From contig CAZAFV010000007.1 of the NCBI GenBank assembly GCA_964484385.1, positions 1,328-65,327 on the forward strand: a stretch of 64,000 nucleotides of DNA, in the 5' to 3' direction. The stretch's first letter is position 1; every line of letters begins with the position of its first letter. This DNA comes from an uncultured Acidimicrobiales bacterium (GTDB lineage Bacteria; Actinomycetota; Acidimicrobiia; Acidimicrobiales; Poriferisodalaceae). The translations under genes were made by a program, and so were the position numbers. The notes under the pieces were generated by a model. It worked only from the letters and a program-made list of their open reading frames with translations, did not search any database and had not been told where the DNA came from. Positions 4,023 to 59,698 of the stretch are shown piece by piece.

Positions 4023-4817
4023 ATGCCATTGCGAGAGAGCCATCGGGCCGGGACGCCCTCGTGGGTCGACTTGGCGACCACCGACGTGGAGGGCGCCATC
4101 GACTTCTACGGGGCGGTCATGGGCTGGGAGTACGAGCGCGACCCCACCGGCGAGATCAACTACGTCATGGCTGTTGTAGACGGGCACCCGGCCGCCGGAG
4201 TGTTCGACATGCCCCCCGAGATGCTCAGTGAAGGCGTGCCGCCGTGCTGGAACGTCTACGTCACCGTGGATGATGCCGACGAGTTCGCCGGTCAGGTTGC
4301 GGCGGCTGGCGGAGCGGTCATGCGACCGGCCATTGACGTGCCCGAGCCTGGCCCGAACGCCGCCGGCCGCATGGTCATCGCCGCCGACCCGACGGGCGCC
4401 GTGTTCTGCACGTGGGCGCCGATTACAGCGATCGGTGCGGGCATCGTGAATGCCCCGGGTGCGTTCACCTGGGCCGAGGTCGCCACGCACGACAACGAAA
4501 CCGCAGAGGCCTTCTACTGCGAGCTGTTCGGCTGGGAAGCGGGAACGATGGAAGGCGTGCCCGACTCTCCGACAGTGTTCACACTCGGCGGAGAACCGGT
4601 GGCGAGCACGTCGGTGGCACCGCCTCCCGGTGTGCCGCCGCACTGGCGGGTGAGCTTCGGGGTGGCCGACGTCGATGCCGCCTGCGCTGCGGCGACGACC
4701 AACGGCGGCAACGTGATCGTGCCGCCCTTCGACTGGGGTCCGGGCCGCATGGCCACAATTGCTGACCCCGTCGGCGCAACCTTCGATGTCGTCACCCTCA
4801 CCGACTGGCCCGAGTAG
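4023..4817 (+). CDS. VOC (glyoxalase/bleomycin-resistance/dioxygenase) family protein, two-domain
   Basis: The in-frame ATG at 4023 (MPLRESHRAGTPSWVDLATTDVEGAIDFYGAVMGWEYE) avoids overlap with the esterase gene. A second repeat follows (FTWAEVATHDNETAEAFYCELFGWEA). This is the typical duplicated VOC fold. Confidence 0.75.
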   Translation: MPLRESHRAGTPSWVDLATTDVEGAIDFYGAVMGWEYERDPTGEINYVMAVVDGHPAAGVFDMPPEMLSEGVPPCWNVYVTVDDADEFAGQVAAAGGAVMRPAIDVPEPGPNAAGRMVIAADPTGAVFCTWAPITAIGAGIVNAPGAFTWAEVATHDNETAEAFYCELFGWEAGTMEGVPDSPTVFTLGGEPVASTSVAPPPGVPPHWRVSFGVADVDAACAAATTNGGNVIVPPFDWGPGRMATIADPVGATFDVVTLTDWPE

Positions 4818-4985
4818 CGAGGTATCTCACTCGGGCAACTGGGGGCCCTGACCTAGCTCGGTAGCACGCGATCGGTCCCATGGCGATGGCCTTGTGCGCA
4901 CCACCCGTTCGACCCGCTGTCACACGGCCCCGGTACCTTGCGAGTTGTCCCCCGCCCACTACGGGCGAAGTCGCGGGAGGGTGAT

Positions 4986-7900
4986 GTGAGTCCACGAATG
5001 GCCGAACCCGCTCTCAACTCGTTCGTCGCGAGCGCTCTCGGTGATCGCCTCGGCGGTTGGACTGTCTCAGCCGAAGCAACCAAGACCTTGACGAAAGCCG
5101 GGCTTCGGCCCGACATCGTGGTCGACACCGGCGCTGCGCCGGTTGCGATTGAGACCGAGTACTTCCCCGGGCCCCAGGTCGAAGACGACGCAATCGCTCG
5201 CATCGGCGAGGCACTTTCGTCAACTGGGCGGGTGATCGAGGTAGCTGTAGCTGTGCGACTGCCGAGTGTCCTGGGCGAGATCGCCGCGGCGGAAGTTCCG
5301 GCGGCGCTGGACATGAGCAACGACTTGGAATGGTGCGTTTGGATCGAGGGCGCCAATGCCGTGCGCTTTCCCGCATCGGGCTGGCTCCAGGGTGACCTCA
5401 ACGATCTGGCCGGTTTCGTCGAAACGGTCGCCGTGTCGGAACGTCGTATCGCAGCCGCGGCCGACGCTTTTGAAGCCGGCGTTTCGCAGGCAGCTTCAAA
5501 CCTGCGTTCAAGCCTGACGGACCGCAGCGCTCAGTCCGCCCTCGACAAGATCGCCGCCGCGTTGCACCAAGACGACAGCGAGCAAACGACGCTGATGGCC
5601 GTCGCTGTGCTCGCCAATGCGCTGGTGTTTCAGTCGGCGCTCGCCGGGGTGCACGACACGCCCTCGATCGAAGAAATGAGATCGGAAAGTGGCATATTCA
5701 CGGTTGGCGCGGTGCTTGATGCGTGGCGAGAGATCCTCAAGATCAACTACTGGCCTGTGTTCGACATCGCCTCGAGGATCTTGCGGCCCACACCCGAAGG
5801 CCCGGCCCAAGAATTGCTTGCTCAATTGGCCGCTGTTGTGGCCGAGCTGTCCGGTGCTGGCGCAACGACCGTCCAAGACCTTGCCGGCCAGATGTTCGGA
5901 CGATTGATCGCGGACCGCAAGTTCCTCGCGACGTTCTACACCTTGCCCGCTTCAGCTTCGTTGCTTGCGGAACTCGCCGTGAGCCAGCTTGATGCACGCG
6001 TCGACTGGAGCGACCTGCCCAGTGTCGGCCAGCTCAGAGTGGCCGACTTCGCGTGTGGAACGGGCGCCCTCTTGTCGGCGGCATACCGCCGGATTGCCTC
6101 GCGAGTGCGTCGGGCCAACCTCACTGACGGCACCGACACCTCCAAGCGACTGCACGCGGCATTCATGGAAGACATCTTGATCGGCTGCGACATCATGCCC
6201 GCAGCCGTGCATCTGACTGCGAGCATGCTGTCGGCCGCTCATCCGGCATCGCCCTTCGGCGATACGAACATCCACCTGATGCGGTACGGCTATCCGGAAG
6301 GCGACAAGTCGAAGCCCGCCTTCATCGGGTCTCTCGAACTGCTTGGTGACGAAACCGCTCCGTCTCTCTTCGGCACAGGCCGGACGCGCGCTGGAGGCAA
6401 GGGCGACATCGAAGACACAGAATCGGGCAGTGCGGACTTTGTGATCGACGACGCCAGTATCGATCTCGCAATCCAGAACCCGCCCTTCACGCGACCCAAT
6501 GGTCCAGAAGCCGAGAAGTTAGGTGTTCCAATTCCTTCTTTCGCCGGGTTCGACACCGACGATGACGAGCAGCAGGCAATGTCAAAGCGGCTGAAGAGCC
6601 TCTACCGGGGACGGCACGAACCGGCTGCAGAAGGCAATGCGGGGTTGGCCACGAACTTCATCGATCTCGCCGACGCAAAGCTCAGGCCAGGGGGTGTTCT
6701 GGCGCTGGTGCTGCCTGCCACGGTCGTCTCCGGTGACGGCTGGCGCGCCACGCGTCATCTGTTGGCGAGGAAGTACTGCGACATCTCGATCGTGACGCTC
6801 GCGACCGGCACAGACCGCGCTTTCTCGGCGGACACTGGCATGGCTGAAGCGCTCATCATCGCAACGAAGCGCTCGAACGAAGTCTCCGTCGACGAGGGCT
6901 TTGCCGAGGACATCGACTGGGTAAGCCTGACACACCGACCGCACAACCCCGTTGAGGCAGTCGCTATGGCTCGCAGCATGACGCGCACCGCCAAGGGCTC
7001 ACAAGCCTTCGTATCCATTGGTTCGGAAGTCATTGGCTGTCGTATTCGGGCACCGCTGTCCGAGGGTGGCTGTGCGCATGCCGCCGATGCGTCGGTGCCA
7101 GCAACAGCTAGCAAGCTGCGAAGTGGGTTACTGCGGCTGCCGAGAGTGAACGAGGTCGCCGCGCCGATCACCCACCTCGGAGAATTGGGTGAGGCCGGAC
7201 CCCAGAACCGCGTCTTCGACGATGTCCGCATCCGCATCGACAGCAAGACGGGGAAGCCTCGCACCGATGCGAACGGGAATCCCATCCACAACGGGGCCTT
7301 CGATATTTCTCGAACGCTGCCGAAGGGCAAGACAGTCGACTACCCCGCTCTTTGGGCGCACGATGCCGCTTCGGGACGCGAGTCGCGCCTAATCGTCGAA
7401 CCGGATCGGGACCTTCGACCTTGGCCCGAGCATCAGGAGCGCGCCAAGGAGATCTGGCAGACGGCGACGCGTCTCCACTACAACCGAGACTTCCAGTTGA
7501 ACAGTCAGATGCTGGGTGCATCTCTGACACCACAGCGGTGCCTCGGAGGCCGCGCGTGGCCTTCGTTCGTCGTTGATGAAGAGCGATGGGAACAGCCATT
7601 GGCGCTGTGGGCCAACACCATTTTGGGCCTCGTAGGACATTGGTGGATTGGAACGCGACAACAGAACGGTCGGGCCATGTTGAGCATCCGGCTGCTGCCC
7701 GAACTGCCTGCGTTGGACTGCCGCGCCCTCACCTCAGGCCAAACGTCCGCGCTCGAACGGGTATTCACGGAATTCGAGCACCGGCAGTTTCTGCCCGCCA
7801 ACGAGGCATGGCGCGACGCAACTCGTCAGGCTCTGGACGAAGCTGTGCTGTGCGACGTGCTGGGCCTTGACCTCGCTGCAGGCGTCAGCCGAGCCGAGTA

Positions 7901-7988
7901 CTCGGAGTCACTCGATGTGCTGCGTCGAGAGTGGTGCCAGGAGCCGTCCGTCCACGGCAACAAGCCGACAGCCCCTCCGACCGGTTGA
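4986..7988 (+). CDS. large gamma-class N6-adenine DNA methyltransferase with N-terminal nuclease-like region and C-terminal specificity-like domain (type IIG/IIL, MmeI-like layout)
   Basis: FYTLPASASLLAELAV lies upstream of motif I DFACGTG (6045-6065). Motif IV is NPPF (6477-6488), and the post-motif KLRPGGVLALVLP follows. The C-terminal LALWANTILGLVGHWW...LLPELPALD resembles Eco57I/TaqI-type C-terminal domains. An N-terminal PD...IETEY string lies at 5109-5159. A GTG at 4986 sits 5 nt after GGGAGG; the alternative start is ATG 4998. Confidence 0.8.
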   Translation: MSPRMAEPALNSFVASALGDRLGGWTVSAEATKTLTKAGLRPDIVVDTGAAPVAIETEYFPGPQVEDDAIARIGEALSSTGRVIEVAVAVRLPSVLGEIAAAEVPAALDMSNDLEWCVWIEGANAVRFPASGWLQGDLNDLAGFVETVAVSERRIAAAADAFEAGVSQAASNLRSSLTDRSAQSALDKIAAALHQDDSEQTTLMAVAVLANALVFQSALAGVHDTPSIEEMRSESGIFTVGAVLDAWREILKINYWPVFDIASRILRPTPEGPAQELLAQLAAVVAELSGAGATTVQDLAGQMFGRLIADRKFLATFYTLPASASLLAELAVSQLDARVDWSDLPSVGQLRVADFACGTGALLSAAYRRIASRVRRANLTDGTDTSKRLHAAFMEDILIGCDIMPAAVHLTASMLSAAHPASPFGDTNIHLMRYGYPEGDKSKPAFIGSLELLGDETAPSLFGTGRTRAGGKGDIEDTESGSADFVIDDASIDLAIQNPPFTRPNGPEAEKLGVPIPSFAGFDTDDDEQQAMSKRLKSLYRGRHEPAAEGNAGLATNFIDLADAKLRPGGVLALVLPATVVSGDGWRATRHLLARKYCDISIVTLATGTDRAFSADTGMAEALIIATKRSNEVSVDEGFAEDIDWVSLTHRPHNPVEAVAMARSMTRTAKGSQAFVSIGSEVIGCRIRAPLSEGGCAHAADASVPATASKLRSGLLRLPRVNEVAAPITHLGELGEAGPQNRVFDDVRIRIDSKTGKPRTDANGNPIHNGAFDISRTLPKGKTVDYPALWAHDAASGRESRLIVEPDRDLRPWPEHQERAKEIWQTATRLHYNRDFQLNSQMLGASLTPQRCLGGRAWPSFVVDEERWEQPLALWANTILGLVGHWWIGTRQQNGRAMLSIRLLPELPALDCRALTSGQTSALERVFTEFEHRQFLPANEAWRDATRQALDEAVLCDVLGLDLAAGVSRAEYSESLDVLRREWCQEPSVHGNKPTAPPTG

Positions 7989-8009
7989 TCGGCCAGCCTC
8001 GCTGCTTCG

Positions 8010-11000
8010 TCAGGCGCCGGGCTTGGTGACGTCGATGACACGGACTGCGATCTTGCGTGCCTCATCGGCGCTCAAGTTCTCCTCCAGCATCTCCGTCAGT
8101 TCCTGGGGACTGCCTGGTCGGCGACCAGAGGACGGCGGCGGAACGTCCTCGCCCCCGAACCAGAACACCAGGTAGATGCCGTAACCGTCTGTTGCCGGAT
8201 CGGTTGTGTACTGACCGATGAGCTGACGCCGCATCGCATGCCACAAGTCACGGTGCGATTCCCGCTTGATCTCGATTGGCACGTTGAATCCACCGCAGCT
8301 CGCGCGGATGTCTGCCCGTGTGCCAGCCGCGTAGCTGCCTTCAGGCTCGACCTCCAGCTCGCGCAACGATGGATGATTCCTAAGGAGTGTGAGCAGCGAA
8401 TCCCGGCATGCGTTCTCGGGTCTAGGAGCAGTTGGGCGCCCATGTGCGTCTACGTTCCAGTAGGCGCGCCACGGGTTCCCTGCGTCCCCCCGCATCTCAT
8501 CGGCGATGTCATCGAGCCGATCCAGCAGCAGTGCCGCGAGGTCGGCCGCATTCGCCGGAGCACCGCCGCTGAGGGTCCGCTGAACATCGTGGATTGTCGG
8601 ATGGCGATACTCGGCGTCTCGTTGGATTGCGCTCTGTTCCTCCCGCTTCCATCGCAAGAGGTCATGCCATTCCGTCAGATCCGGATGGTGTTCCAAGTGT
8701 CGAAGTGCCTCAGCGGCCTCGTCGTCGGGCATCTGTGCGAGCAGGTGGATCATCGCCCGTATCCGATCTGCCGCATCGATCTCAACTGTGACGAGCCCGT
8801 CGAGGTCAAGCGGTTGAAACGAGCGTCCGAGCGTCTGGATGAGCATCGCGAGCGTTCCCGGGCTCAAGCGCGCGATGAGTTCTGGCCATCGAGACCCGTG
8901 CGCATCAGGGGCCGAATGGAAGAACTCGGCAATGTGCCGGACAGCCGATCGATGACTGCCGACATGCTGGGCGAGTTCGTGGACATAGCGGTCTTCAAAA
9001 GCCAGTGCCGCAGCGGTGAGCCAGCGAGCGCGCTGCGCGACCGTCATGCTCACGAGGTTGAGCTTGCTGTCGATGAGCTCACGAAGGCCAGGTGTTTCAG
9101 GATTCGCCAAGGTGGCCAACAACAGCCGCTCAAGCAGCCGAAGCTGGGCGTTCGACCCGCGAAGGGGGAAAGACGCCAGCAGTTGCAGCGTGACGCCCTG
9201 ATCGCCGCCGAGGGTGTCAAGTTCGTTCAATCCCGGCGGGTGTTCATCGCCGCTTCGGATCGCAGCGGCTGCACATCGGGTCGCCACTTCAGTAACGAGT
9301 GACCGGTTCTCCACAAACCATCGCTCGACCCACGGCGGCAATGACGACATGTCAGTTGGAACACAGAAGACGAGCGCTAGTGCTTGGCGCTTGAGACCAT
9401 CGTCTAGCTGGTCAAGCTGCGCTGGGTCTTCATCGTCGAGCAACCGCAGCCCAACGAGCGTGGGCAGTGCGAGCCATGCATGCTTTGACTCATTGTGCAG
9501 GGTGATTGTCTCGTCAACGCTGGGAAGTTCAGGTCGCCTGACGGACTCGCGGAACGCCTGCAACACGGCCTCGACTAGGTCGGCTTCGCCACCGATGAAC
9601 TCGCTGAGACGGGTCCGCTCGTCAAGTCCGTCATCGCTGTCGGCGTACAGACCCATGTACGCGAGTGCGAGTGCATGCAGGTTCACTGATGAAAAGGTGT
9701 TGTTGCGGAGTTCGCTCTCACCTGAGCGGAGCCCGTCAGCCCATTGCTCTGCGCGGCGCCGCGTCTCGTCGACCCACGTGGCACGACGTTCGTCCCGTTC
9801 CTTGAGCCATTGCTCGACCTTGGGGTCAGGGGACACCGGGGCGAGCAGAGCTTCGACGAGTTCTGTCAGGGGATCGAAGTCGCTGACCGCTCTCCGAAGG
9901 GCATCGGCAGTAAGGCCGTCGTTCACTTCTGGGTTATCGAGTGCCCCGTGCGCAAACCGCACGAGTTCACGCGCCAAATCCAAGTCCGACTCGGCGAGTT
10001 CTGCCGCGCACTCGAGGCACCACCGGCCGAAGTCCGAGGGAAGGCTGCTCCCGTGCAACGCCAGACATCGACCGTGAAACTCAAGGGTCAGCAGATCGTT
10101 GGGGTCGCGAACTCGAAGCCAGCGCAAGAACACTTGCCGCTGGACGTCCGGCCGAGCCTCAAGCCAGTCTCGAACACGCCGGCTGGCTGCGCTTCTCGCC
10201 GGCATGACCTCAGGCTCGCAGTCACCAGTAACGCTGAGCCATGAAAACAGGCGACTCTCATCGATCTCATCGCCCAGTTCGACTAACGCCGTTGCCAAGA
10301 GTTCCACAGCTGCGCGGTCGAAATAGCGTGAGCGGAGAATCGGGAGCACTCGACTGGCGTCGCGGTGTAGAGAATCCAAGAGCTCGCCAGCTTGTGCAGC
10401 GGAAGAGTGTGCCGTCAGTTTCCGATCCCAGAATCCCTCGAAGATCCCAATGATTCGCTTGCGGCTAGGGTGCGCTGCGTATCCCCACACTTCAGCTGGC
10501 TGAATGGCGCCCGGGTACAGCACTTCGAGCAATCTGCCTGCGAGCTGACGATCGGGATCGGAAACTCGGTTCGCCGTGATGTCGTCGAGCAGTTCGCGAA
10601 GACCTCGTTGCGCTTCAGGACCTGCAGACGTGAGGTGAATCTGCGCGTCCAACGCTGCCAGCCGAGCACGCCGTGAATGACCACCGTTACGAACTACGTC
10701 TGAGACGTGCGGAACCAGTTCTCGCACGACATCGAACTGATCCTCGCCCACAACCGCCAGGCACTGGAGCAAGAACTCCGTTACACGCTCGCTCGTGATG
10801 TCTTGAGGACTACCCGCCAGCAGATCTGTGACGGTCTCAAACGTCTCAGCATCGATGATGGAACGAAATGCCCACGCTGTCGTATCGCGGAAGTCCAGGC
10901 GTCGCCCATCGCGCCGCTCACTGCCCAACAGCGGACCCTCCGCTGCGTATGACGCAAGCGCCCGCAGCAGGCGCCGCTTCTGTTCGCCGTTCAACCAACC

Positions 11001-12185
11001 GATATCGCCGTAGAGGCCGATGCCGACAGGGTCGGCGTCAACAAGTCGATCGAGCGCCTCCCGGGAATGCGCCGCGAACCAAGCTGACAAGCCACGCAGC
11101 GACGTCACGACTCGGCCGTCATGTGGACTGGCCATGAGGGCCACAAGCCGCCGGGCCGGTATTCCTTCGCCAACGAGCCGCGCAAGGAAGCGGCCACCGA
11201 GATACTCGGCAATGTGTCGATGCAGAGGAACGAACCTCGAATTGCTTGTGACTGCCGCTGCGTCTGGAACCGCTGAGAACAGCTTCGTCCGCAGGGCATC
11301 CCTCCATCCGCTAAGCCGCCGATCCGGCCCGTCAACTCCGTCGCCTTCGAGGGCGTCGAGCGCTACATAGGCCGGTTGGTCCTCTAGTCGGTTGACGGAA
11401 AAGCCCTCGTTGCCCGACAGCAGTTGAATGGCGCACAGCTCGCCGGCGGCGTCGAGCACTTCCTCCAACGCGCGGGAGGTACTTGCGGAGGCATGCTCGT
11501 CATTTCGTTCCCAAGCCATCTGGCGACAGGCCAAGTCGAAGGTGTCCAGCCGGTTCTTAGGCCACGAACTGCCGCCGTGAACAAAAGCGCGAGCGAGCAA
11601 TTCAAGTGTGAGGGGATTGATGAGCATCGCGCTGATGTCGCCGTGCGGGTCGCCGCTTGTGAAGGCCTGCAAGTCGTACTCGTCAAGGTGTAGCGCCAAC
11701 AGCTCCCGCTGTGCGGCCCCGTCGAGTGGCTCAAGCCTGAACACCGCCACTTCTTCTCCAGGGGTTGCCCTTTCGAGGCTGCGGCGGTCGTTGCTGCCAA
11801 GCCAATCGGCCTCACGGCACGAGATGCGGTACTTCGGCCAGCCAAGCTGATCCAGACGCTTGCGGATTTCATCAAGCGCTGGACGTCCGTCGGCCATGCC
11901 TGCACGGATCTCATCCAAACCGTCTATGAAGATCGTCTTGTCGCGCCACTCGGACCTGACATCGAACGTTACGAAGTCCCGAGCACTGCGTAGCAGTGCC
12001 GCATCGCCGAGTTCTTCGCACTCGTGCCGGAACTCGATCGACTTGCCAGCACCAGCGTCGCCAAGGAGTACGTAGGCGCGTTCCGACCGGAAAGTGCTGA
12101 GTGGAGCTGAACCCACTTCCCGTTGGCCACCTGATTCAACCGCGGCGAGACGGGCACAGGTGCGCTTGACGTACGTCTCGCTCAT
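8010..12185 (-). CDS. NACHT/STAND-type P-loop NTPase with long helical-repeat region and C-terminal PD-(D/E)xK (RecB/Cas4-like) nuclease domain
   Basis: 1,391-aa ORF. Walker A GDAGAGKS lies at 12039-12062. The NACHT-style Walker B IFIDGLDE lies at 11910-11933. About 1,100 aa of Leu/Ala/Arg/Glu-rich helical sequence follow. The C-terminus reads ...ADIRASCGGFNVPIEIKRESH...QLIGQY, giving D1292, E1305-x-K1307 (8265-8273) and a following QxxxY. Confidence 0.75.
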   Translation of the reverse strand: MSETYVKRTCARLAAVESGGQREVGSAPLSTFRSERAYVLLGDAGAGKSIEFRHECEELGDAALLRSARDFVTFDVRSEWRDKTIFIDGLDEIRAGMADGRPALDEIRKRLDQLGWPKYRISCREADWLGSNDRRSLERATPGEEVAVFRLEPLDGAAQRELLALHLDEYDLQAFTSGDPHGDISAMLINPLTLELLARAFVHGGSSWPKNRLDTFDLACRQMAWERNDEHASASTSRALEEVLDAAGELCAIQLLSGNEGFSVNRLEDQPAYVALDALEGDGVDGPDRRLSGWRDALRTKLFSAVPDAAAVTSNSRFVPLHRHIAEYLGGRFLARLVGEGIPARRLVALMASPHDGRVVTSLRGLSAWFAAHSREALDRLVDADPVGIGLYGDIGWLNGEQKRRLLRALASYAAEGPLLGSERRDGRRLDFRDTTAWAFRSIIDAETFETVTDLLAGSPQDITSERVTEFLLQCLAVVGEDQFDVVRELVPHVSDVVRNGGHSRRARLAALDAQIHLTSAGPEAQRGLRELLDDITANRVSDPDRQLAGRLLEVLYPGAIQPAEVWGYAAHPSRKRIIGIFEGFWDRKLTAHSSAAQAGELLDSLHRDASRVLPILRSRYFDRAAVELLATALVELGDEIDESRLFSWLSVTGDCEPEVMPARSAASRRVRDWLEARPDVQRQVFLRWLRVRDPNDLLTLEFHGRCLALHGSSLPSDFGRWCLECAAELAESDLDLARELVRFAHGALDNPEVNDGLTADALRRAVSDFDPLTELVEALLAPVSPDPKVEQWLKERDERRATWVDETRRRAEQWADGLRSGESELRNNTFSSVNLHALALAYMGLYADSDDGLDERTRLSEFIGGEADLVEAVLQAFRESVRRPELPSVDETITLHNESKHAWLALPTLVGLRLLDDEDPAQLDQLDDGLKRQALALVFCVPTDMSSLPPWVERWFVENRSLVTEVATRCAAAAIRSGDEHPPGLNELDTLGGDQGVTLQLLASFPLRGSNAQLRLLERLLLATLANPETPGLRELIDSKLNLVSMTVAQRARWLTAAALAFEDRYVHELAQHVGSHRSAVRHIAEFFHSAPDAHGSRWPELIARLSPGTLAMLIQTLGRSFQPLDLDGLVTVEIDAADRIRAMIHLLAQMPDDEAAEALRHLEHHPDLTEWHDLLRWKREEQSAIQRDAEYRHPTIHDVQRTLSGGAPANAADLAALLLDRLDDIADEMRGDAGNPWRAYWNVDAHGRPTAPRPENACRDSLLTLLRNHPSLRELEVEPEGSYAAGTRADIRASCGGFNVPIEIKRESHRDLWHAMRRQLIGQYTTDPATDGYGIYLVFWFGGEDVPPPSSGRRPGSPQELTEMLEENLSADEARKIAVRVIDVTKPGA

Positions 12186-13462
12186 GGGTTCTCAACCCAC
12201 TCGCTTGCCGGCACGGAGAGGAACTCATCCAGCGAGACACCGCCCTCGCCGACCACGAGGGTCCTCGCTTCGAATCGCTGCCTGAACTCATCAAGCCCAG
12301 GCAGCGATTCCCGTACCGCGCCCGTCTTGACCTCGATTCCGAGCAATTTCGGACCGCGTTGCAGAACAAAGTCAACTTCGACCTCGGATCGACCGTGGCG
12401 CTCCCTCCAGTACTTGACCTCTCCGCTGGACGACATGGTGTTGATGAGGTGTGCTCCAACAGCGCTCTCGACGAGGCGACCCCAGAAGGTGCGATCTGCG
12501 CGCGCCTCGTCGAACTGGTACCCCCAGACCATCGACATCAGCGCTGTGTTCAGCACGTTCAGCTTCGGGGTCGAAGCCTTGGCCGAGACTGCGCGCTCGG
12601 TGTGCTTGGACAGGCCCGTCAGCAAACCTGCGTGCGACAACAACTGCAGGTACCGCGTCAGAGTGGTGGTGTTGCCGGCATCTTGGAGCTGTCCGAGCAT
12701 CTTGTTGTAGGCAAGCACCTGACCCGAGTAGCGAACGCCCACATCGAAGAGGCGTCGCAACAGCGCTGGCTTGTCGACCCTCGTCATGGCCAGCACATCA
12801 CGCTCGATGTTCGGCTCGACCAGCACTCTTCGGACGTGTTGATGCCACTCGTCGTGCGCCTCCAGTTTCTCCGTGGCGCCGGGGTAACCGCCGTAGAACA
12901 CGTACTCGTCCAAGCTGAAGCCGAACGCCGCCGCCATCTCGGTGAAGGACCAATGAGGAGAGACGATCATCTCGAATCGGCCCATGAGGCTTTCGTTCAG
13001 GCCCTCCTGGATTTGCAACGGTGCCGAGCCGAGGACGACCACGTGCAGCGGACAGCCCGATATGCGGTCGTCATCCCAGAGGCCTTTCACGACGGTTGAC
13101 CAGTTCGGCAGCCTTTGGATCTCGTCCAACACCAACACGCAGCCATCAGACGATTTCTTCGCCCGTTCACGGCATTGCTTCCACACTTCGACCAGCCATT
13201 GAGCGTCACGCGGCGCGGACGGCAGCCGGGCTTCGCGTCCAGCAATCGCGCCTGCGTCGAACGGCCCCAAGTCGTCGGACGATTCGTCGACTCCACCCGG
13301 TTCGAACGCGACCATGCGCCAGCCATGCCGAATTGTCTGTAGAGCCTGCAGAACGGCAGTCGTCTTGCCGGACTGTCGGGGCCCGAAAACCGCGATCAGC
13401 CGCTCGGGCGGCTCGTTGAGCCGTTCTACGATCGTTGTGACCAGTGGTCGTCGATACCGCAC
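12182..13462 (-). CDS. AAA-type ATPase with C-terminal DUF4143-like (restriction-endonuclease-fold) domain
   Basis: 426-aa ORF with a GTG start. Walker A GPRQSGKTT lies at 13358-13384 and Walker B is VLVLDEIQ. The C-terminal EVEVDFVLQ...LLGIEVKTG is a D...ExK pattern. The stop TGA overlaps the ATG of the NACHT gene (ATGA at 12182-12185). Confidence 0.8.
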   Translation of the reverse strand: MRYRRPLVTTIVERLNEPPERLIAVFGPRQSGKTTAVLQALQTIRHGWRMVAFEPGGVDESSDDLGPFDAGAIAGREARLPSAPRDAQWLVEVWKQCRERAKKSSDGCVLVLDEIQRLPNWSTVVKGLWDDDRISGCPLHVVVLGSAPLQIQEGLNESLMGRFEMIVSPHWSFTEMAAAFGFSLDEYVFYGGYPGATEKLEAHDEWHQHVRRVLVEPNIERDVLAMTRVDKPALLRRLFDVGVRYSGQVLAYNKMLGQLQDAGNTTTLTRYLQLLSHAGLLTGLSKHTERAVSAKASTPKLNVLNTALMSMVWGYQFDEARADRTFWGRLVESAVGAHLINTMSSSGEVKYWRERHGRSEVEVDFVLQRGPKLLGIEVKTGAVRESLPGLDEFRQRFEARTLVVGEGGVSLDEFLSVPASEWVENP

Positions 13463-13486
13463 TACGCAGACAGCTTATCGGTTCTT

Positions 13487-13522
13487 GTAACGCTACTGAG
13501 TAATTTTACTCAATAGCGTTAC
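13487..13522. repeat. 36-bp AT-rich near-perfect palindrome (IR1) 25 bp upstream of the ATPase-NACHT operon
   Basis: GTAACGCTACTGAGTAA-TT-TTACTCAATAGCGTTAC, with 16 of 17 arm positions complementary. It lies in a roughly 43 % GC intergenic stretch. Confidence 0.85.
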
Positions 13523-13578
13523 CGGAAGCATGGAGCTTGCATCTGGATCACATCCAAGCCAATACACCCATCGGTTCC

Positions 13579-13610
13579 AACGCTATTGAGCAATTTTGCT
13601 CAGTAGCTGT
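13579..13610. repeat. 32-bp AT-rich palindrome (IR2), a diverged copy of IR1
   Basis: AACGCTATTGAGCAA-TT-TTGCTCAGTAGCTGT, with 12 of 15 arm positions complementary. 26 of 32 nt are identical to the IR1 core. The centres are 90 bp apart. It abuts and overlaps the stop codon of the molybdoenzyme gene. Confidence 0.8.
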
Positions 13611-15799
13611 CAAGGCCGCTCGCAGGCAGGCTGCGGATCGTCCGCAACCGCGGAGAGGTTGACGGGGATTCCGTTCAGGATGCTCATTCCTGCCAGCCGC
13701 TCGATGTCTTGGCCCGACGCGCTGGCGAGGATGTTGCTGTTGACGCCGCCGGCCGCGTTGGCACGGCGCCAACCCCCGTCATGACCCCAGCCGTGTGGCA
13801 GGGCCACCGTGCCTGGGCCTACCTCGTCGCTGACGGCCACCGATACCCGGACAGTTCCGGATGCGGACGTGATGTCGACATCGCTGCCGCCGGCGAGGCC
13901 GAGCCGATGAGCGTCGCTGGGATTGACGCGGGCAGTCAGGCACCTGCCTTCGGGCATGAGCCGGGGCGCGTTGTGCATCCACGTGTTGTGTGAGCGAAGT
14001 TCTCGCATGCCGATGAGCCGGAACCCGAAGCGGTCATCGTCGGTGTGCTCCCCCAGTGCGGCGAGTTCGCCGAGCACCTCGGGGGCAGCCAGGGGAATCT
14101 TCCCGTCCGGCGTCGCCAGCCTTGCGTCGATCTCGCCCGTGGGGAGTTCGTCCAGCAGCTTCTTGCCGTGCGGGAAGTCGCGTGTGAGCTTGTCGAACGA
14201 GACCCCGCGCCGGCGCAGACCGAATCGGTCGCCCGCTTTGCCAGTGCGCAGCAACAGGTCGAGCAGCCGTCGCGGCGTGATGTTCCAGCCCAGCTTGGCC
14301 AGCCATCGAAGCGGGCGCAGCACATGGGCGCCGCCGCGGCCCATGCGCTTGGCGATCTCGTTCAGAATCTGCCACTCCTGGCGCACCCCGGCAGGCGGCT
14401 CGATCACCGCCTCGGTGGCCCAGATCGCTGGGCGCAACATGTTCGCAAGCGTGGTCACGGGAACGTCGTCGCGTTCATAGAAGTGGGTCACCGGCAGCAC
14501 GTAATGGCAGTGCTTGTTGGTCTCGTTGATGTAGAGGTCGAGCGAGAAGCTCAGCTCGAGCTGTTCGAGTGCTTCCTCGAGCCAGGTGCCGCCTCCGGCG
14601 CTGCTGAGCACCGGATTGCCTCCGACGAGTGCGAGTGCCTTGATCTGGCCCTCGCCCGGTGTGACGATGTCGACCGCCAAGTCCGTCGACGGGAGCAGGC
14701 CGAATACGTCAGGGTGCTGGTTGACCCGAGTTCGCACCTTGCCGTAGGTATCGGTTCCGGCTTTGCGGGCCAGTTCAGGCAGGTCGATCGCCGCCCAGCC
14801 GAACAGCAGACCACCCGCCCTGTCGAAGTTGCCGGTGAGCAGAACCACGATGTCCTGCAGGACGTTGTTGAGCGTGCCGAAACGCTGGGTGCAGGTGCCA
14901 GTGCGGCCATAGACGACTCCGCTGTCCGCCGATGCAAAGTCCCGCGCGAGCTGCTCGATGACGGCGGCAGGAATTCCCGAGCGCGACGCGCACCGCTGAA
15001 TATCGAACGGCGCGATGACGTCGGCAAGCGTGCTGAGACCACCGACATGGCGATCGATGAAGGAATGGTTGACCAGGTCCTTGTCGATCAGAGTCCGGAT
15101 GATGCCGAGCAGCAAGAAGGCGTCGCTGCCGGGCCGCACGGAGATGTGCTCGTAGCGCTGTGCCGTCTCCGTACGGCGGGGATCCACAACGACGACCCGC
15201 CCGCCGCGCTCGATGACAGCGTCGAGCGCCTCCCGCAGGCGAGCCTCCGTGACCAATGAGCCATGCGAGACCAGTGGGTTCGCGCCGATGATGACGGCGA
15301 AGTGCGTGCGCCACAGGTCCGGCTTGGGCGCGATGGCGACCGACCCGTACAGCAGCGCGTTGGCCGCCATGCGTGCCGACGCGTCCTCGGAGTTGATGCC
15401 GTACCGCCACCTGATGCCCAGCACTTCCTGAAAGCCGGCCAGTGCCATGGACGTGGCGAAGCTGAACAACGGCGGGTTGCCGCAGAAGGTGGCGAGTGCG
15501 TCGGGGCTGCTGTCGGTACGGATACGGCCAAGGCGCTGGGCGATGTCGTCGAGCGCCTCGTCCCACGACACGGGTTCGAAGACGCCGGGGTCGCCCACCC
15601 GCTTCATCGGCTGAGTGACCCGATCGGGGTCGTACACAATCTCGACTGCGCCCGCCGCCTTCGTGCACACATATCCCTGAGAATGAACATGATCGGCATC
15701 GCCACGGACGCTCACGAGCCGTCCGTCTGAGATCGTCGCGACGAGACCGCACTGCGGCTCGCAGATGCGGCAGTGGGTGTATGCGGTCTTGGTTGCCAT
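13610..15799 (-). CDS. molybdopterin (bis-MGD) oxidoreductase family protein, formate-dehydrogenase-like single subunit
   Basis: 729-aa ORF. The N-terminal Fe-S cluster motif is HCRICEPQCGL...GYVCTKA. The molybdopterin-binding and C-terminal dinucleotide-binding layout is present (...VALPHGWGH...). Confidence 0.85.
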   Translation of the reverse strand: MATKTAYTHCRICEPQCGLVATISDGRLVSVRGDADHVHSQGYVCTKAAGAVEIVYDPDRVTQPMKRVGDPGVFEPVSWDEALDDIAQRLGRIRTDSSPDALATFCGNPPLFSFATSMALAGFQEVLGIRWRYGINSEDASARMAANALLYGSVAIAPKPDLWRTHFAVIIGANPLVSHGSLVTEARLREALDAVIERGGRVVVVDPRRTETAQRYEHISVRPGSDAFLLLGIIRTLIDKDLVNHSFIDRHVGGLSTLADVIAPFDIQRCASRSGIPAAVIEQLARDFASADSGVVYGRTGTCTQRFGTLNNVLQDIVVLLTGNFDRAGGLLFGWAAIDLPELARKAGTDTYGKVRTRVNQHPDVFGLLPSTDLAVDIVTPGEGQIKALALVGGNPVLSSAGGGTWLEEALEQLELSFSLDLYINETNKHCHYVLPVTHFYERDDVPVTTLANMLRPAIWATEAVIEPPAGVRQEWQILNEIAKRMGRGGAHVLRPLRWLAKLGWNITPRRLLDLLLRTGKAGDRFGLRRRGVSFDKLTRDFPHGKKLLDELPTGEIDARLATPDGKIPLAAPEVLGELAALGEHTDDDRFGFRLIGMRELRSHNTWMHNAPRLMPEGRCLTARVNPSDAHRLGLAGGSDVDITSASGTVRVSVAVSDEVGPGTVALPHGWGHDGGWRRANAAGGVNSNILASASGQDIERLAGMSILNGIPVNLSAVADDPQPACERP

Positions 15800-15808
15800 C
15801 GAAAGCGC

Positions 15809-18271
15809 TCAGCGCAGGGCGCCTGCCGCCTCGAGCGCTGCGATCTCGTCGGGGTTGAGCCCGAGCAGGCCGGTGAGCACCTCGTGCGTGTGCTGGCCGA
15901 GCGTGGGAGCGGGCGAGCGCACGCCATTGGTGCCGTCGGAGAGAAGCCACGGGATGCCGACGTGGCTCATCTGGCCCACGACCGGATGATCCAGACGCTC
16001 GATCAGCCCGCGCTCGGCGAGGTGCGGGTTGACTTCGAGTGAGCGTGAGCTGAGCGAGGGGAAGGCGGGCACGCCGGCAGCTTGCAGCAGCTCGGTGATG
16101 TCCCACTGGTCACGCTCACGGGTCCACGCGCCGATGAGCTTGTCGAGCTCAGCCTCGTTGGCCTTGCGGTCGGCGGCTGTGGCGAATCGCTCATCGTCGG
16201 GATCGATGCCGGTAATCCTCGCCAGCGCAGCCCACTCGGCTTCGTCGACGCAGCAGACGGCAATCCAGTCGTCGTTGCCGGCACAGCGAAACAGGTTGTG
16301 CGGAGACCACAGTGGGTCGAGGTTGCCCATCGGATCTGGCTGCGTGCCCCGCATCACCCATTCCATCCAACCCTCGACGGTGCACGCCGTGGTGGCCTCC
16401 CACATCGACGTGTCGATGAACTGACCCTCGCCGGTGCGCCGCCGCGCCACCAGCGCGGCGACCAGCGCGTACGCCGTGGCAATCCCGGCCGCCGGGTCGC
16501 CGAGCGACACGCCGAGCTCGTCTGCGTCCGCTCCGGGGTAGCCGGTCATCGATGCGAGGCCCGACAGCGGCCCGGTGGTGGGTCCGTAGCCCATGTACGA
16601 CTGGTACGGCCCATGGTGGCCGTAGCCGCTGATGGCGCCCACGATCACGTCGGGACGCTCTGCGGCCAGCGCCTCGTAGCCGAGACCCCATCCGTCCATG
16701 ACGCCGGTGGCGTAGTTGGACACCACCAGGTCGCACGACAGCGCCAAGCGCTTCGCCAGTGCACGCCCCTCGGGAGTGCCCAGGTCGATGGTGATGCTCT
16801 GCTTGCCTTGGCCGTACTGGTTGAAGTAGCCGTTGGTGTCGAGCGTTGGCGTGTGACGGCCCGACTGCGTCGGCAGACGGCGACCGAGATCGGGCCGGGC
16901 CGACGACTCCACCTTGATCACTGTGGCGCCGAGGTGTGCTAGGTGCAGCGTGCAGTAGGGGCCCGCCCAGACCCAGGTGAAATCCGCCACCGTGACGCCG
17001 TCGAGCGGGCGGCTCGACGGTGTGGCCGAAGATGCAGGCGCAGGTGCTGGCAGTGATGCCGTCGCTGTGTCGGTCGCGGCAAATGAAGGACCGCTGTGCT
17101 CGCCCAGCGACGGTGCCGGTCGGCGGATGGACCACCACGAATTCGTGAGCCGCGACGGCGCGCCCGGCACGGTGATGTCTCCCAGCCCCGGCTGTTCGTA
17201 GGTGACGAGGAAGTCACGGGCTGCCAGGTGCGGGTCGGCGGCCATCTGCGCCACCGTGTTCACCGGGGCAAACGCCAGCCGCTCTGCCTGGCCCCGATGA
17301 AACAGCTCCGTCACCGGCTGCGCAGCGATCCACTCGCCGAGCCACATGCGCAGCAGGTCTTCGTTCTCGAAGCGACCCTCGAGCGTCTCGAAAATGTCCA
17401 TGTCGGCCCACTCCGGCCGGCCCATGAAATCTTTCAGCCGCTCCCACTGGTCGGCTTCGACGCACACGAGGAAGATGTGCCCGTCGCTGGTCGGGAAGAT
17501 CCCCCACGGGTTGAGAATGCGAGCACCGAGGCGGCTGGGGTTCTCGCCCCGGTACGACCAGCTGATGAACGCTGCTTCCAGCATGCCGACGACGTAGGAC
17601 ATCTGGGCGAAGTCGATGTGCTCGCCGCGACCGGTGCGCTGTGCACGGTCGACAGCGGCGAGCGATGCGCATGCAGCCGCGAAGCCCGACTGGAAGGCAG
17701 CTTGGTGGCCGTGGGGCTTCAGCGGGGGCAGCTCGGGATCGGCCACGCAGCCGGGGGTAAGCCAGCCCCAGCCGCCGCCGTGAACGACCTGCAGCTCGGT
17801 CGCTCGCCAGTCCGCATACGGACCGGTCTGCCCGAATGGCGTGATCGACATCGTGACCAGCGACGGATGCTGCGCCCGCAGCGGTTCTGCTGTGAGGCTG
17901 TGCGCAGCCGCTGTTGCCGGCGCCAGATCGTGGATGAACAGGTCTGCGTCGGCGAGCAGCTGTTGCAATGTTGCGCGGCCGTCTGGCCGGGCGAGGTCCA
18001 CCACGATGCCGCGCTTGTTCGTGTTGATGGCGGCAAACAGGCCGCCCGTCAGCTCAGAGCCGGTGCCGGATCCGGTACCGAGGTCGACTTCGGCGTTGGG
18101 GTGCCCACTGCCAGCAGCGAATGGCCCGCGACGGCGCGCAGCGTCGCCCGCCGGCGGCTCGACCTTGATGACGTCGGCGCCGAGGTCGGCGAGCAGCTTG
18201 GCCGTCCACGGAGCCGCCACCATCTGTCCCAGCTCGACGACACGGATGCCGTCAAGACCGCGCGCGGTCAT
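15809..18271 (-). CDS. fused double family III CoA-transferase (CaiB/BaiF type)
   Basis: 820 aa with two complete CoA-transferase modules. The first begins GIRVVELGQMVAAPWTAKLLADLGADVIKVE and the second GVTVADFTWVWAGPYCTLHLAHLGATVIKVE. An Ala/Ser/Pro linker at about 17009-17095 joins them. Confidence 0.85.
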   Translation of the reverse strand: MTARGLDGIRVVELGQMVAAPWTAKLLADLGADVIKVEPPAGDAARRRGPFAAGSGHPNAEVDLGTGSGTGSELTGGLFAAINTNKRGIVVDLARPDGRATLQQLLADADLFIHDLAPATAAAHSLTAEPLRAQHPSLVTMSITPFGQTGPYADWRATELQVVHGGGWGWLTPGCVADPELPPLKPHGHQAAFQSGFAAACASLAAVDRAQRTGRGEHIDFAQMSYVVGMLEAAFISWSYRGENPSRLGARILNPWGIFPTSDGHIFLVCVEADQWERLKDFMGRPEWADMDIFETLEGRFENEDLLRMWLGEWIAAQPVTELFHRGQAERLAFAPVNTVAQMAADPHLAARDFLVTYEQPGLGDITVPGAPSRLTNSWWSIRRPAPSLGEHSGPSFAATDTATASLPAPAPASSATPSSRPLDGVTVADFTWVWAGPYCTLHLAHLGATVIKVESSARPDLGRRLPTQSGRHTPTLDTNGYFNQYGQGKQSITIDLGTPEGRALAKRLALSCDLVVSNYATGVMDGWGLGYEALAAERPDVIVGAISGYGHHGPYQSYMGYGPTTGPLSGLASMTGYPGADADELGVSLGDPAAGIATAYALVAALVARRRTGEGQFIDTSMWEATTACTVEGWMEWVMRGTQPDPMGNLDPLWSPHNLFRCAGNDDWIAVCCVDEAEWAALARITGIDPDDERFATAADRKANEAELDKLIGAWTRERDQWDITELLQAAGVPAFPSLSSRSLEVNPHLAERGLIERLDHPVVGQMSHVGIPWLLSDGTNGVRSPAPTLGQHTHEVLTGLLGLNPDEIAALEAAGALR

Positions 18272-58099: not shown

Positions 58100-59698
58100 C
58101 TACGAGGCGACTGCAGTAGTCGAAGGGCCTTGCGGCTGCAGGCCGATCGGGAAGGCGTCGCGGACGGCGGCGTCGATGGCGGGGCTGATGTGCGACGGCC
58201 AGTGGCTCTCGAGCGTGGCCACCACATGGTCGTGGGCCACATCGTGCGCGGCCCGGCTGCCCGCCTCGGTCCAGTCCTCGGGAGTGTCCCGGTTGGACAC
58301 CAGCGGGTAGAGGTACTCGGTTTCCATGAGCTCGAGTGTCTGCGGCGAGCCCAGGAAGTGGCCCGGCCCGGCGATGACCTCGCCGATGAGCTCAGCCGAC
58401 AAGGTGTCAGGGTTCACCTCGATGCCGCGCACCGTGCGGTTGATGGCACCGAGCATGTCGTTGTCGATCACCAGCGCCTCGTGCGAGCACGCCAGCAGGC
58501 TCGCCAGCATCCCCGCCGACTCATAGACGATGTTCGCTCCCGCATGGCCGGCCAGCCCTACGTTCAGGCCCTTCTCATAGCCGGCCTGGGCGTCGTTCAC
58601 CTTGGAGTCGGTCATTCCCGCCGCCACGCCGGTGGGCAGCCCGAGCCAGTGGCCCACTTCGGCCGCTGCGGCATTGAGGATTCCCTCCTCGCCCGATCCC
58701 CCGCTCATGGCACCGGTGCGCAGGTCGGACACGAACGGCCACAAGCCCAGCAGGCAGGGATGGCCCGGCGACAGCAGGTTCACGAAGGTCAACCCCCCGA
58801 GACACTCGGCCACCGCCTGCGCCAGAGCGCCAGCGAGCGCCGCAGGCGCAGTGGCACCGGCCTGCAGCGCCGACAGCAGGTTGATAGGCATGCCCGTTAT
58901 CACCTGCGCGAAGAGGCATATCGCAGAGTCGTATTCAAAGCGCAGCGGTGGCACGACGAACGTGTTGTTCGCCGCGATGAACGGGCGCTTCGCGAACTCG
59001 CCCTCGCCTCCCAGCACGAGGTCGAACATCTCGACCGACTCGTACACCCACTCGGGCTCGAACCACGACGATCCGCCCGGCTTGGTGGTGCTGCACATCA
59101 CTGCGTACGCAGTGGTCATGTCGAGGTCACGGGTCTCGACCATGTCGCGTGCCACCACCGTGCGCACGTAGAAGTGCAGGTTGTCGAGCGTGTCGACCAA
59201 GCGGCCGCAGTCGTACACGTCCTGCGCGAGCGAATCGCGGAACGTGCCGGTCTCGTGGTCGTACATCATCACCGCAGCGCCGGACGTGCCGAAATAGACA
59301 TGCTCGCCGCCCACGTGCACCGACTGATCGTCGTCGAAGCCGTGCCAGATCCACTCCTTGGCCGCCGTCTCGATGGCGCGTTCCACGACACCGCGAGGCA
59401 GGTGAATGCGTCCGTTGTCGTCGACCCACCCGCCCACAGGCGTCGCCGCCTCGACGAACTCGTCGAGGGGATCGCCCATGCCGACGTCTTCGAGCAGCCC
59501 GAGTGCGGTGTCGTACACCTGCTGCATGTCGCTCTCGGTCAGCGGTTTGAATCGACCCGCGGGCAGGCCGGGGCGAACTGGCCTGCGATCGCGCTCAGGT
59601 GCTGCTTCGCGGACGGCGATGCGGCCGGCGCGGCCGCCGCCGCGGCGCCGGCGGGGTGCCTCAGCAGTCTCGGGTGACGGTGCAGCCGTGTCAGACAT
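58100..59698 (-). CDS. MttB-superfamily methyltransferase, non-pyrrolysine (glycine-betaine-type candidate)
   Basis: 532-aa uninterrupted ORF with no in-frame TAG. It has the MttB family layout (...LTESDMQQVYDTALGLLEDVGM...). It lies next to a dimethylglycine-dehydrogenase-like gene. Confidence 0.8.
   Translation of the reverse strand: MSDTAAPSPETAEAPRRRRGGGRAGRIAVREAAPERDRRPVRPGLPAGRFKPLTESDMQQVYDTALGLLEDVGMGDPLDEFVEAATPVGGWVDDNGRIHLPRGVVERAIETAAKEWIWHGFDDDQSVHVGGEHVYFGTSGAAVMMYDHETGTFRDSLAQDVYDCGRLVDTLDNLHFYVRTVVARDMVETRDLDMTTAYAVMCSTTKPGGSSWFEPEWVYESVEMFDLVLGGEGEFAKRPFIAANNTFVVPPLRFEYDSAICLFAQVITGMPINLLSALQAGATAPAALAGALAQAVAECLGGLTFVNLLSPGHPCLLGLWPFVSDLRTGAMSGGSGEEGILNAAAAEVGHWLGLPTGVAAGMTDSKVNDAQAGYEKGLNVGLAGHAGANIVYESAGMLASLLACSHEALVIDNDMLGAINRTVRGIEVNPDTLSAELIGEVIAGPGHFLGSPQTLELMETEYLYPLVSNRDTPEDWTEAGSRAAHDVAHDHVVATLESHWPSHISPAIDAAVRDAFPIGLQPQGPSTTAVAS

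Follow-up and report, generated by a model that had tools for sequence, protein, structure and literature searches.

Gene content and base composition of the locus

A group of three large genes was analyzed in a stretch of 64,000 nucleotides from an uncultured Acidimicrobiales bacterium of the Poriferisodalaceae (contig CAZAFV010000007.1, positions 1,328 to 65,327 of the forward strand), which is referred to throughout as the window. These genes lie between a VOC gene, with its stop at position 4817, and a molybdoenzyme gene, with its stop at 13610, and they encode an adenine methyltransferase with a nuclease-like N-terminus, a nucleoside triphosphatase (NTPase) of the NACHT type ending in a PD-(D/E)xK nuclease, and an ATPase of the AAA/DUF4143 type. 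The calls of open reading frames (ORFs) agree with the positions given for the three genes in a preliminary description of the locus, whose domain assignments were also right. The locus is likely to be a small defense island in a long-standing hypervariable hotspot beside the VOC gene, composed of two independent modules, the ATPase-NACHT gene pair (Module A) and the methyltransferase gene (Module B). The hosts of this hotspot are sponge-associated Acidimicrobiia (Candidatus Poriferisodalis and relatives).

Table 1. Features of the locus and other features of the window discussed in the text.
Feature	Position	Strand	Remarks
Methyltransferase ORF as called	4938-7988	+	1,016 aa from upstream TTG
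Module B, type IIG-like enzyme, likely extent	4998-7988	+	~996 aa
Convergent spacer between methyltransferase stop and NACHT stop	7989-8009		21 bp; variable cargo slot in relatives
Module A, two-gene operon with palindromic site	~8010-13605	-	
NACHT gene (Module A, gene 2)	8010-12185	-	1,391 aa
ATPase gene (Module A, gene 1)	12182-13462	-	426 aa, GTG start
Palindrome, proximal copy	13494-13515		~31 nt 5' of ATPase GTG; candidate operator
Palindrome, distal copy	13584-13605		90 bp from proximal copy; directly after molybdoenzyme stop codon
Molybdopterin oxidoreductase (molybdoenzyme) gene	13610-15799	-	
Coenzyme A (CoA)-transferase gene	15809-18271		
MttB-family methyltransferase ORF	58100-59698		532 aa, uninterrupted
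PYLIS_3 match	58516-58615	-	within the MttB-family ORF

The methyltransferase and NACHT genes converge, and the TGA of the ATPase gene and the ATG of the NACHT gene share four nucleotides as ATGA; both the short convergent spacer and this overlap, already reported in the preliminary description, are seen in the sequence. The lower GC content reported for the region was borne out by the profiles, with a GC of 0.622 in 4818-13609 versus 0.674 in the remaining window, and a GC at third codon positions (GC3) of 0.719 in the methyltransferase gene, 0.676 in the NACHT gene and 0.763 in the ATPase gene versus 0.831 +/- 0.045 in the 39 other called genes, only two of which come down to 0.70-0.72. No integrase or transposase was found among the three genes and no tRNA in positions 1-24000 of the window, in agreement with the earlier statement that such elements mark neither border. 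A scan with promoter and terminator consensus sequences was uninformative, since it returned no promoters and fewer terminators than were found in shuffled sequences.

The NACHT protein and its relationship to Erebus/Avs10

The NACHT protein matched the NCBIfam model NF058535 (antiphage_EruA) with 800.7 bits and an E-value of 3.5e-240, from profile position 11 to 1318 of 1318, and HyoA with 128 bits. Scores of 732-979 bits against the EruA model were obtained for other relatives, both those paired with an ATPase gene and those without one. Erebus and Hypnos were reportedly first described by van den Berg et al. in 2024, and work on the group formed by Erebus, Hypnos and bNACHT64 is also attributed to Kibby et al. 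in 2023. These three have been grouped as Avs10, a family of STAND proteins that sense the phage major capsid protein; the trigger is a major capsid protein of the HK97 fold, and protection against phages is known for Avs10 (Lee et al., Nature 2026, PMC13581612).

The protein starts with a NACHT NTPase and ends in a PD-(D/E)xK nuclease, and the part in between is a hypervariable sensor region. It was classified as a NACHT protein because of the name of the NCBIfam model together with its Walker A (GDAGAGKS) and NACHT-type Walker B (FIDGLDE, including the DGLDE motif) sequences. The residues G42, G45, G47, K48 and D88-E92 were invariant in 26 homologues, and so were the C-terminal D1292...E1305-x-K1307. 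The AlphaFold2 (AF2) model of residues 1100-1391 had a predicted local distance difference test (pLDDT) value of 85, and nearly all its Foldseek matches were PD-(D/E)xK nucleases (BstEII, PspGI, SfsA, Can2, McrC, Hjc). Searches of the PDB with the single protein sequence or a profile returned nothing useful, and no NACHT or nuclease family was found when fragments of the protein were compared with Pfam.

Relatives of the NACHT protein were collected with an alignment-based scan that considered one genome per species; a search of the genome contigs with the single sequence gave no match, and the alignment query recovered the relatives. At least 439 were found, and the best 80 loci, from at least ten phyla and, judged by name, almost all from sponge symbionts, were analyzed. 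A homologue search started from a relative in Agrobacterium reached no sequence named EruA.

The ATPase and its upstream palindrome

In the ATPase, Pfam detected AAA_14 (1.5e-17) and DUF4143 (6e-23), and the PADLOC model PDLC04791 (PDC-S01) matched it over its full length (487 bits, 6.5e-147). The Walker A and B residues and those of the E-V-D...E-x-K nuclease motif are 97-100 % conserved, and PDB sequence searches gave matches at the level of the P-loop only. PDC-S01 has been described as the fourth most common prokaryotic defense candidate, an ATPase fused to a PD-(D/E)xK domain (PMC12988326). The window protein resembles these COG1373-type proteins in the full-length hidden Markov model (HMM) match, in the conserved Walker and PD-(D/E)xK residues and in the upstream palindrome, which is the same as that of solo members. 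It differs from them in that PDC-S01 was defined as a single-gene candidate, whereas the window type belongs to a subclade of its own, almost monophyletic, whose genes are fixed in one operon with a gene of the NLR-like kind; solo members make up the rest of the family.

The palindrome has a length of 22 bp, with the consensus TATTGAGTAAnnTTACTCAATA, and is present upstream of the ATPase gene in two window copies where none is expected from shuffled sequences. Two copies at similar spacing were also found in the relative L037. A match precedes the ATPase gene in 60 of the 77 loci that contain the ATPase-NACHT pair, and its first base is usually exactly 38 nt ahead of that gene's start codon; only seven matches were found elsewhere in 1.38 Mb. 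When genomes were scanned with the pattern alone, at least 120 loci were obtained, and in at least 84 of them the palindrome has the start of a DUF4143 ATPase gene about 0-160 bp away. Among these 84 listed units, 27 continue with a NACHT gene and 57 do not, the latter including units from Bacteroidota, Eggerthellaceae, Chlorobi and Spirochaetia. In the listed matches (L176-L295) the palindrome usually ends 3-21 nt before the ATPase start codon.

The palindrome belongs to the ATPase family, because palindrome-ATPase units occur both with and without a NACHT gene, and the idea that it is a feature of the NACHT module was rejected for the same reason. A conserved downstream partner of the solo ATPases was likewise rejected, as the 57 listed NACHT-free units share no downstream gene. 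The position of the palindrome and its AT-rich center suggest a putative operator overlapping the promoter. This palindrome marks DUF4143 (PDC-S01) ATPase genes in very distant bacteria, including gut Eggerthellaceae and sponge symbionts, and no description of it was found in the searchable literature.

Linkage of the ATPase and NACHT genes

The DUF4143 ATPase gene is located directly upstream of the NACHT gene in 77 of the 80 species-level loci and in every close relative, and the four-nucleotide overlap of stop and start codons is kept in 61 of those 77. NACHT-linked ATPases are nearly monophyletic, forming one clade of 96 linked and two solo proteins, and the pairwise identities of ATPase and NACHT proteins are correlated (r = 0.83, Mantel p = 0.001), the median identity in the pair loci being 62 % between ATPases and 41 % between NACHT proteins. 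The three loci of this clade that carry the NACHT gene without the ATPase gene are L030, L075 and L077. Five of five proteobacterial NACHT relatives, which reached 775-882 bits against the EruA model where scored, also have no ATPase gene, and sit in defense islands beside Ppl, Abi, Thoeris or Shedu.

Module A shares with Erebus/Avs10 the end-to-end homology to the EruA model, the NACHT NTPase, the large central sensor, the C-terminal D...ExK motif and the defense-island setting, and it differs in its model score, which stays under the cut-off given below, and in the coupled upstream ATPase-nuclease gene with its palindrome, both of which are absent from the five proteobacterial relatives. Unlike Erebus/Avs10 as a single-gene system, and unlike PDC-S01 as a stand-alone one, the two genes stand together here and in the related loci. 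Module A is regarded as an Erebus/Avs10-type system in a two-gene form, to which PDC-S01 and a palindromic site have been joined, and as a translationally coupled operon behind this operator-like site. By homology to Avs10/Erebus, the NACHT protein would bind a conserved phage protein (the major capsid protein in Avs10) through its rapidly evolving central part, NTP-dependent oligomerization would switch on the C-terminal PD-(D/E)xK nuclease, and the activated nuclease would degrade DNA, aborting the infection. We propose that the ATPase-nuclease would be a required partner of the NACHT protein, a passenger role being unlikely, and that it most likely binds the palindrome, setting the expression of the operon, and/or serves as another effector that targets DNA.

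A broader interpretation can be put forward tentatively, as a possibility with the balance tilted against it: that a large Erebus/Avs10-like NLR clade, comprising hundreds of species-level genomes, mostly of sponge symbionts and from at least ten phyla, is two-component, with PDC-S01 as an obligate partner acting as helper, regulator or co-effector, and that PDC-S01 proteins generally recognize the palindrome upstream of their genes. If it holds, this interpretation would provide a first functional handle on PDC-S01, which one survey ranked fourth among the most common defense candidates, and a counterpart in bacteria to the NLRs of plants and animals that work as sensor/helper pairs. Since the field regards each Avs/NLR sensor as a system of one protein, a partner gene that is conserved would mean a new architecture. 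Two results offer concrete starting points for work on PDC-S01: an entire subclade is locked into a translationally coupled operon with an NLR gene whose family is validated for capsid sensing, and the palindrome of the ATPase family keeps a constant distance to the start codon.

Several points weigh against these interpretations of Module A. The NACHT protein misses the equivalog cut-off of NF058535 (1,000 bits), which makes it a homologue of the same architecture and not an equivalog, and with a score below that cut-off the assumption of the same trigger as in EruA is an extrapolation. The Pfam NACHT model did not match the protein, and the Foldseek E-values of its C-terminal nuclease matches are weak (5e-3 or worse). 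The comparison of gene content with Erebus covers the five proteobacterial relatives, the original Erebus locus being only presumably free of an ATPase gene. No experiment backs PDC-S01 as a defense gene (PMC12988326), and both the binding of the ATPase to the palindrome and its interaction with the NACHT protein are predictions only.

Alternatively, the PDC-S01 ATPase and the Erebus-like NLR could be independent single-gene systems that merely have one promoter in common and travel as a cassette, without depending on each other. Each family does occur solo, as shown by the NACHT-free palindrome-ATPase units (at least 57) and by the proteobacterial NACHT genes without ATPase; the palindrome goes with the ATPase family and not with the NACHT gene, the NACHT protein has an effector nuclease of its own, and the three ATPase-free NACHT loci belong to the same clade as the window. 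Nevertheless, gene order and overlap are kept across at least ten phyla despite the median identities given above, the linked ATPases form one clade with only two reversions to the solo state, both proteins have strongly co-diverged, and loss of either partner is rare (3 of 80 loci). Full independence of the two genes is for these reasons considered rather improbable.

Both the NACHT-ATPase module and the methyltransferase family were found overwhelmingly in metagenome-assembled genomes (MAGs) that are named as those of sponge symbionts, in at least ten phyla, this habitat being read from the names only (Poriferisodalis, Poriferisocius, Spongiisociaceae and sponge-bin codes), and with protein identities of only 36-50 %. 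The many phyla, the sponge-type MAG names and these identities suggest horizontal spread of both within the sponge microbiome.

The methyltransferase as a probable type IIG-like enzyme

From the sequence, the methyltransferase gene probably starts at ATG 4998 or GTG 4986, behind a GGGAGG, and not at TTG 4938, which gives a protein of 996-1,000 aa, while its homologues have 996-1,001 aa. The chain begins with a nuclease-like domain that carries PD...ExE; a helical linker leads from there to a gamma-class N6-adenine methyltransferase, and the C-terminus is formed by a target-recognition region. The motif I and NPPF/Y motif IV of gamma-class N6-adenine methyltransferases are both present, and their ACGTG core and the N-P-P of NPPF, respectively, were invariant in 40 homologues. 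Only weak HMM matches were obtained, to Eco57I (16.9 bits, below the cut-off), MTase_II, MAD2 and PglX, and PDB searches with the sequence and with a profile gave marginal matches only. The AF2 model (pLDDT 81, predicted template modeling score 0.84) found as its best Foldseek match the type IIG endonuclease BpuSI (PDB 3s1s), with an E-value of 7.8e-15, 1,111 alignment columns and a template modeling (TM) score of about 0.33-0.36, followed by type IIL DrdV (7lvv, 7lo5), BrxX/PglX and LlaBIII; TaqI-like and CamA methyltransferases were also among the structural matches.

The protein is similar to the type IIG/IIL enzymes (BpuSI, DrdV, MmeI, Eco57I), a class left unconsidered in the preliminary description, in its length of about 1,000 aa, in the order nuclease-like domain, helical linker, methyltransferase (NPPF) and recognition domain, and in being encoded by a solo gene. 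It differs from them in an identity of only 10-13 %, in a Pfam Eco57I match below threshold and in having ExE instead of ExK. With BREX PglX/BrxX and MADS MAD2 it shares a related methyltransferase fold and weak HMM matches, but no PglZ, BrxC, BrxL or MADS partner genes were found in the window or in the 80 loci, out of at least 534, that were analyzed for the neighborhoods of the methyltransferase family. A BREX/DISARM assignment was rejected, as the PglX HMM gave only 14.5 bits and PglZ, BrxC, BrxL and DrmA/B/C genes are absent from 4818-13609, where the preliminary description had already noted no PglZ, helicase or PLD, and not conserved in the 80 family loci. MADS was rejected on the score of NF047738 (MAD2), 23.4 bits against a cut-off of 720, and types I and III on HMM scores and neighborhoods.

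No separate R, S or M subunit genes are linked to the methyltransferase in these 80 loci, and no neighbor is conserved in more than eight of them, the sole recurrent one being a tandem paralogue. Module B would be a stand-alone, single-chain type IIG-like enzyme. It would modify the adenines of its own recognition sequence by N6 methylation, and its BamHI-like PD...ExE domain at the N-terminus would cut unmodified DNA. With more than 4,400 hits, annotated only as hypothetical, the family would represent a sizeable unannotated type IIG-like group.

Cleavage of DNA by this protein is uncertain, its nuclease motif having no canonical lysine, and the protein might instead be an adenine methyltransferase of the orphan or regulatory type, or what is left of a PglX-like component, its N-terminal domain being catalytically dead. 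The ExE motif, the weak HMM matches and the presence of the non-cutting BrxX/PglX and the orphan methyltransferase CamA among the structural matches are compatible with this possibility, which is nevertheless judged unlikely. P38, D39, E52 and E54 of the N-terminal P38 D39...E52-x-E54 motif are invariant in 40 homologues with identities down to 47 %, and BamHI, with the catalytic residues D94, E111 and E113, also has an E-x-E variant of the nuclease motif. Moreover, the best structural match is an endonuclease aligned over more than a thousand columns, no BREX genes are found near the family members, and in L017 the same slot of the locus holds a classical type II restriction-modification pair.

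Two full-length methyltransferase genes in tandem were observed in L127, L131 and L150, which may reflect two specificities or a duplicated, diverging restriction-modification gene. Three Logan contigs from independent assemblies, with an identical NACHT protein (L001, L002 and L003; SRR8304783, SRR8304785 and SRR8304771) all stop at the same point of the methyltransferase gene, with 691 codons kept, at about window position 5915. This shared end points to variation among strains or to a repeat, which may be a paralogue.

Synteny and variation of the locus in related genomes

Each of the eight relatives examined carries the ATPase-NACHT pair in the stretch delimited by the CoA-transferase gene and the VOC gene. 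The insertion of about 8.7 kb proposed in the preliminary description was consequently rejected as a single recent event, and only the slot of the methyltransferase varies. The flanks are 84-94 % identical in nucleotide sequence to those of the relatives, the ATPase and NACHT genes only 68-80 %, and the sensor region is unalignable. At the protein level, identities to the closest relative (L017) are 96 % for the CoA transferase, 92-93 % for the VOC protein and 82 % for the ATPase, and within the NACHT protein 72 % for residues 1-200, 36 % for the sensor residues 451-950 and 63 % for residues 1151-1391.

The slot between the NACHT and VOC genes contains the methyltransferase gene in the window and in L096 (where a gap of 617 bp precedes the NACHT gene), the methyltransferase gene together with a KAP-family NTPase gene in L009, an ISL3 transposase in L004 and L010, a C5 methyltransferase with an EcoRV-like endonuclease in L017, a bPH protein in L037 and nothing in L012. 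The KAP NTPase of L009 (14214-15620) matches the PADLOC candidate PDC-S20, and the C5 methyltransferase of L017, which lies with the endonuclease at 12624-14657 beside the NACHT gene, is of the Dcm type. The locus shows the dynamics of immune genes on a fine scale in uncultured sponge symbionts: the hotspot stays in place, the sensor domain is hypervariable and the restriction-modification cargo can be exchanged.

The same synteny bears on the possibility that the palindrome-ATPase unit is a selfish or housekeeping DNA element, such as a site-specific nuclease with its target site, behind which the NACHT gene was captured. The unit is extremely widespread and often alone, two palindrome copies are present in the window and in L037, and the experimental validation of PDC-S01 is missing, as stated above. 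Against this, the unit is stably syntenic in the eight related genomes, and PADLOC selected the PDC-S01 family for its embedding in defense islands. In addition, no more than one or two copies of the palindrome are found, invariably 5' of the gene and at a constant distance from its start codon, a placement that fits an operator or promoter and not the two ends of a mobile element. An origin as a selfish or housekeeping element is accordingly regarded as very unlikely.

The least probable explanation, barely worth entertaining, is the one of the preliminary description, a single three-gene immunity system in which the methyltransferase marks self DNA and a STAND sensor and two nucleases attack unmarked DNA; although the genes are adjacent and convergent, have lowered GC3 in all three cases, recur as a trio in the close relatives L009 and L096 and have a distant counterpart in four further loci, this model is largely refuted by the co-occurrence counts (79 of the 80 methyltransferase-family loci, all except L096, have no pair, and 76 of the 80 loci with the pair lack a homologue of the methyltransferase in the 8 kb around it), and it is also contradicted by the close relatives whose pair is accompanied by other cargo or none, in one case by an unrelated type II restriction-modification system, by the KAP NTPase gene between the modules in L009, and by the nuclease-like domain and type IIG fold of the methyltransferase itself.

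Near the ATPase-NACHT pair, the methyltransferase proper was found only in the lineage of the window (window, L009 and L096), and a distant homologue within 8 kb in four of the 80 other pair loci. In three of these, all from Chloroflexota (L060, L072 and L088), the homologue (216-230 bits) is convergent past the NACHT stop with an 84-bp gap, an arrangement identical to that of the window; in the fourth (L073, also Chloroflexota) it lies 1.8 kb from the NACHT gene. The Chloroflexota layout is probably the result of one or two independent events plus ordinary clustering in defense islands, and the methyltransferase family may have a weak preference for the position downstream of the NACHT gene.

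The island of two modules is the reading retained here; it is built on fold matches and conserved motifs, on synteny and linkage statistics, and on the gene content with its family assignments, whereas all of the biochemistry is inferred. The preliminary description had taken the locus for a candidate uncharacterized defense system, with a combination of genes that it did not recognize. A defense locus of atypical composition was found indeed, whereas its parts can be recognized: the NACHT protein is related to EruA over its full length, the ATPase falls into PDC-S01, and the methyltransferase has the fold of the type IIG/IIL enzymes.

Other features of the window

The molybdopterin oxidoreductase gene, taken in the preliminary description for a native flank, is missing from all seven relatives with DNA aligned to the window. 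There, about 250 bp separate the CoA-transferase gene from the upstream region of the ATPase gene. In the window, the molybdoenzyme gene lies 9 bp after the stop of the CoA-transferase gene and has a host-like GC3 of 0.82; it could have been gained in the window genome or lost in the relatives.

The only Rfam match in the window was PYLIS_3, with 49 bits versus a gathering score of 38, located within an ORF that encodes an MttB-family methyltransferase (Pfam MTTB, 3.7e-99). Because it has no in-frame stop, this ORF looks like a non-pyrrolysine MttB homologue, and the PYLIS_3 match probably reflects similarity of the coding sequence.

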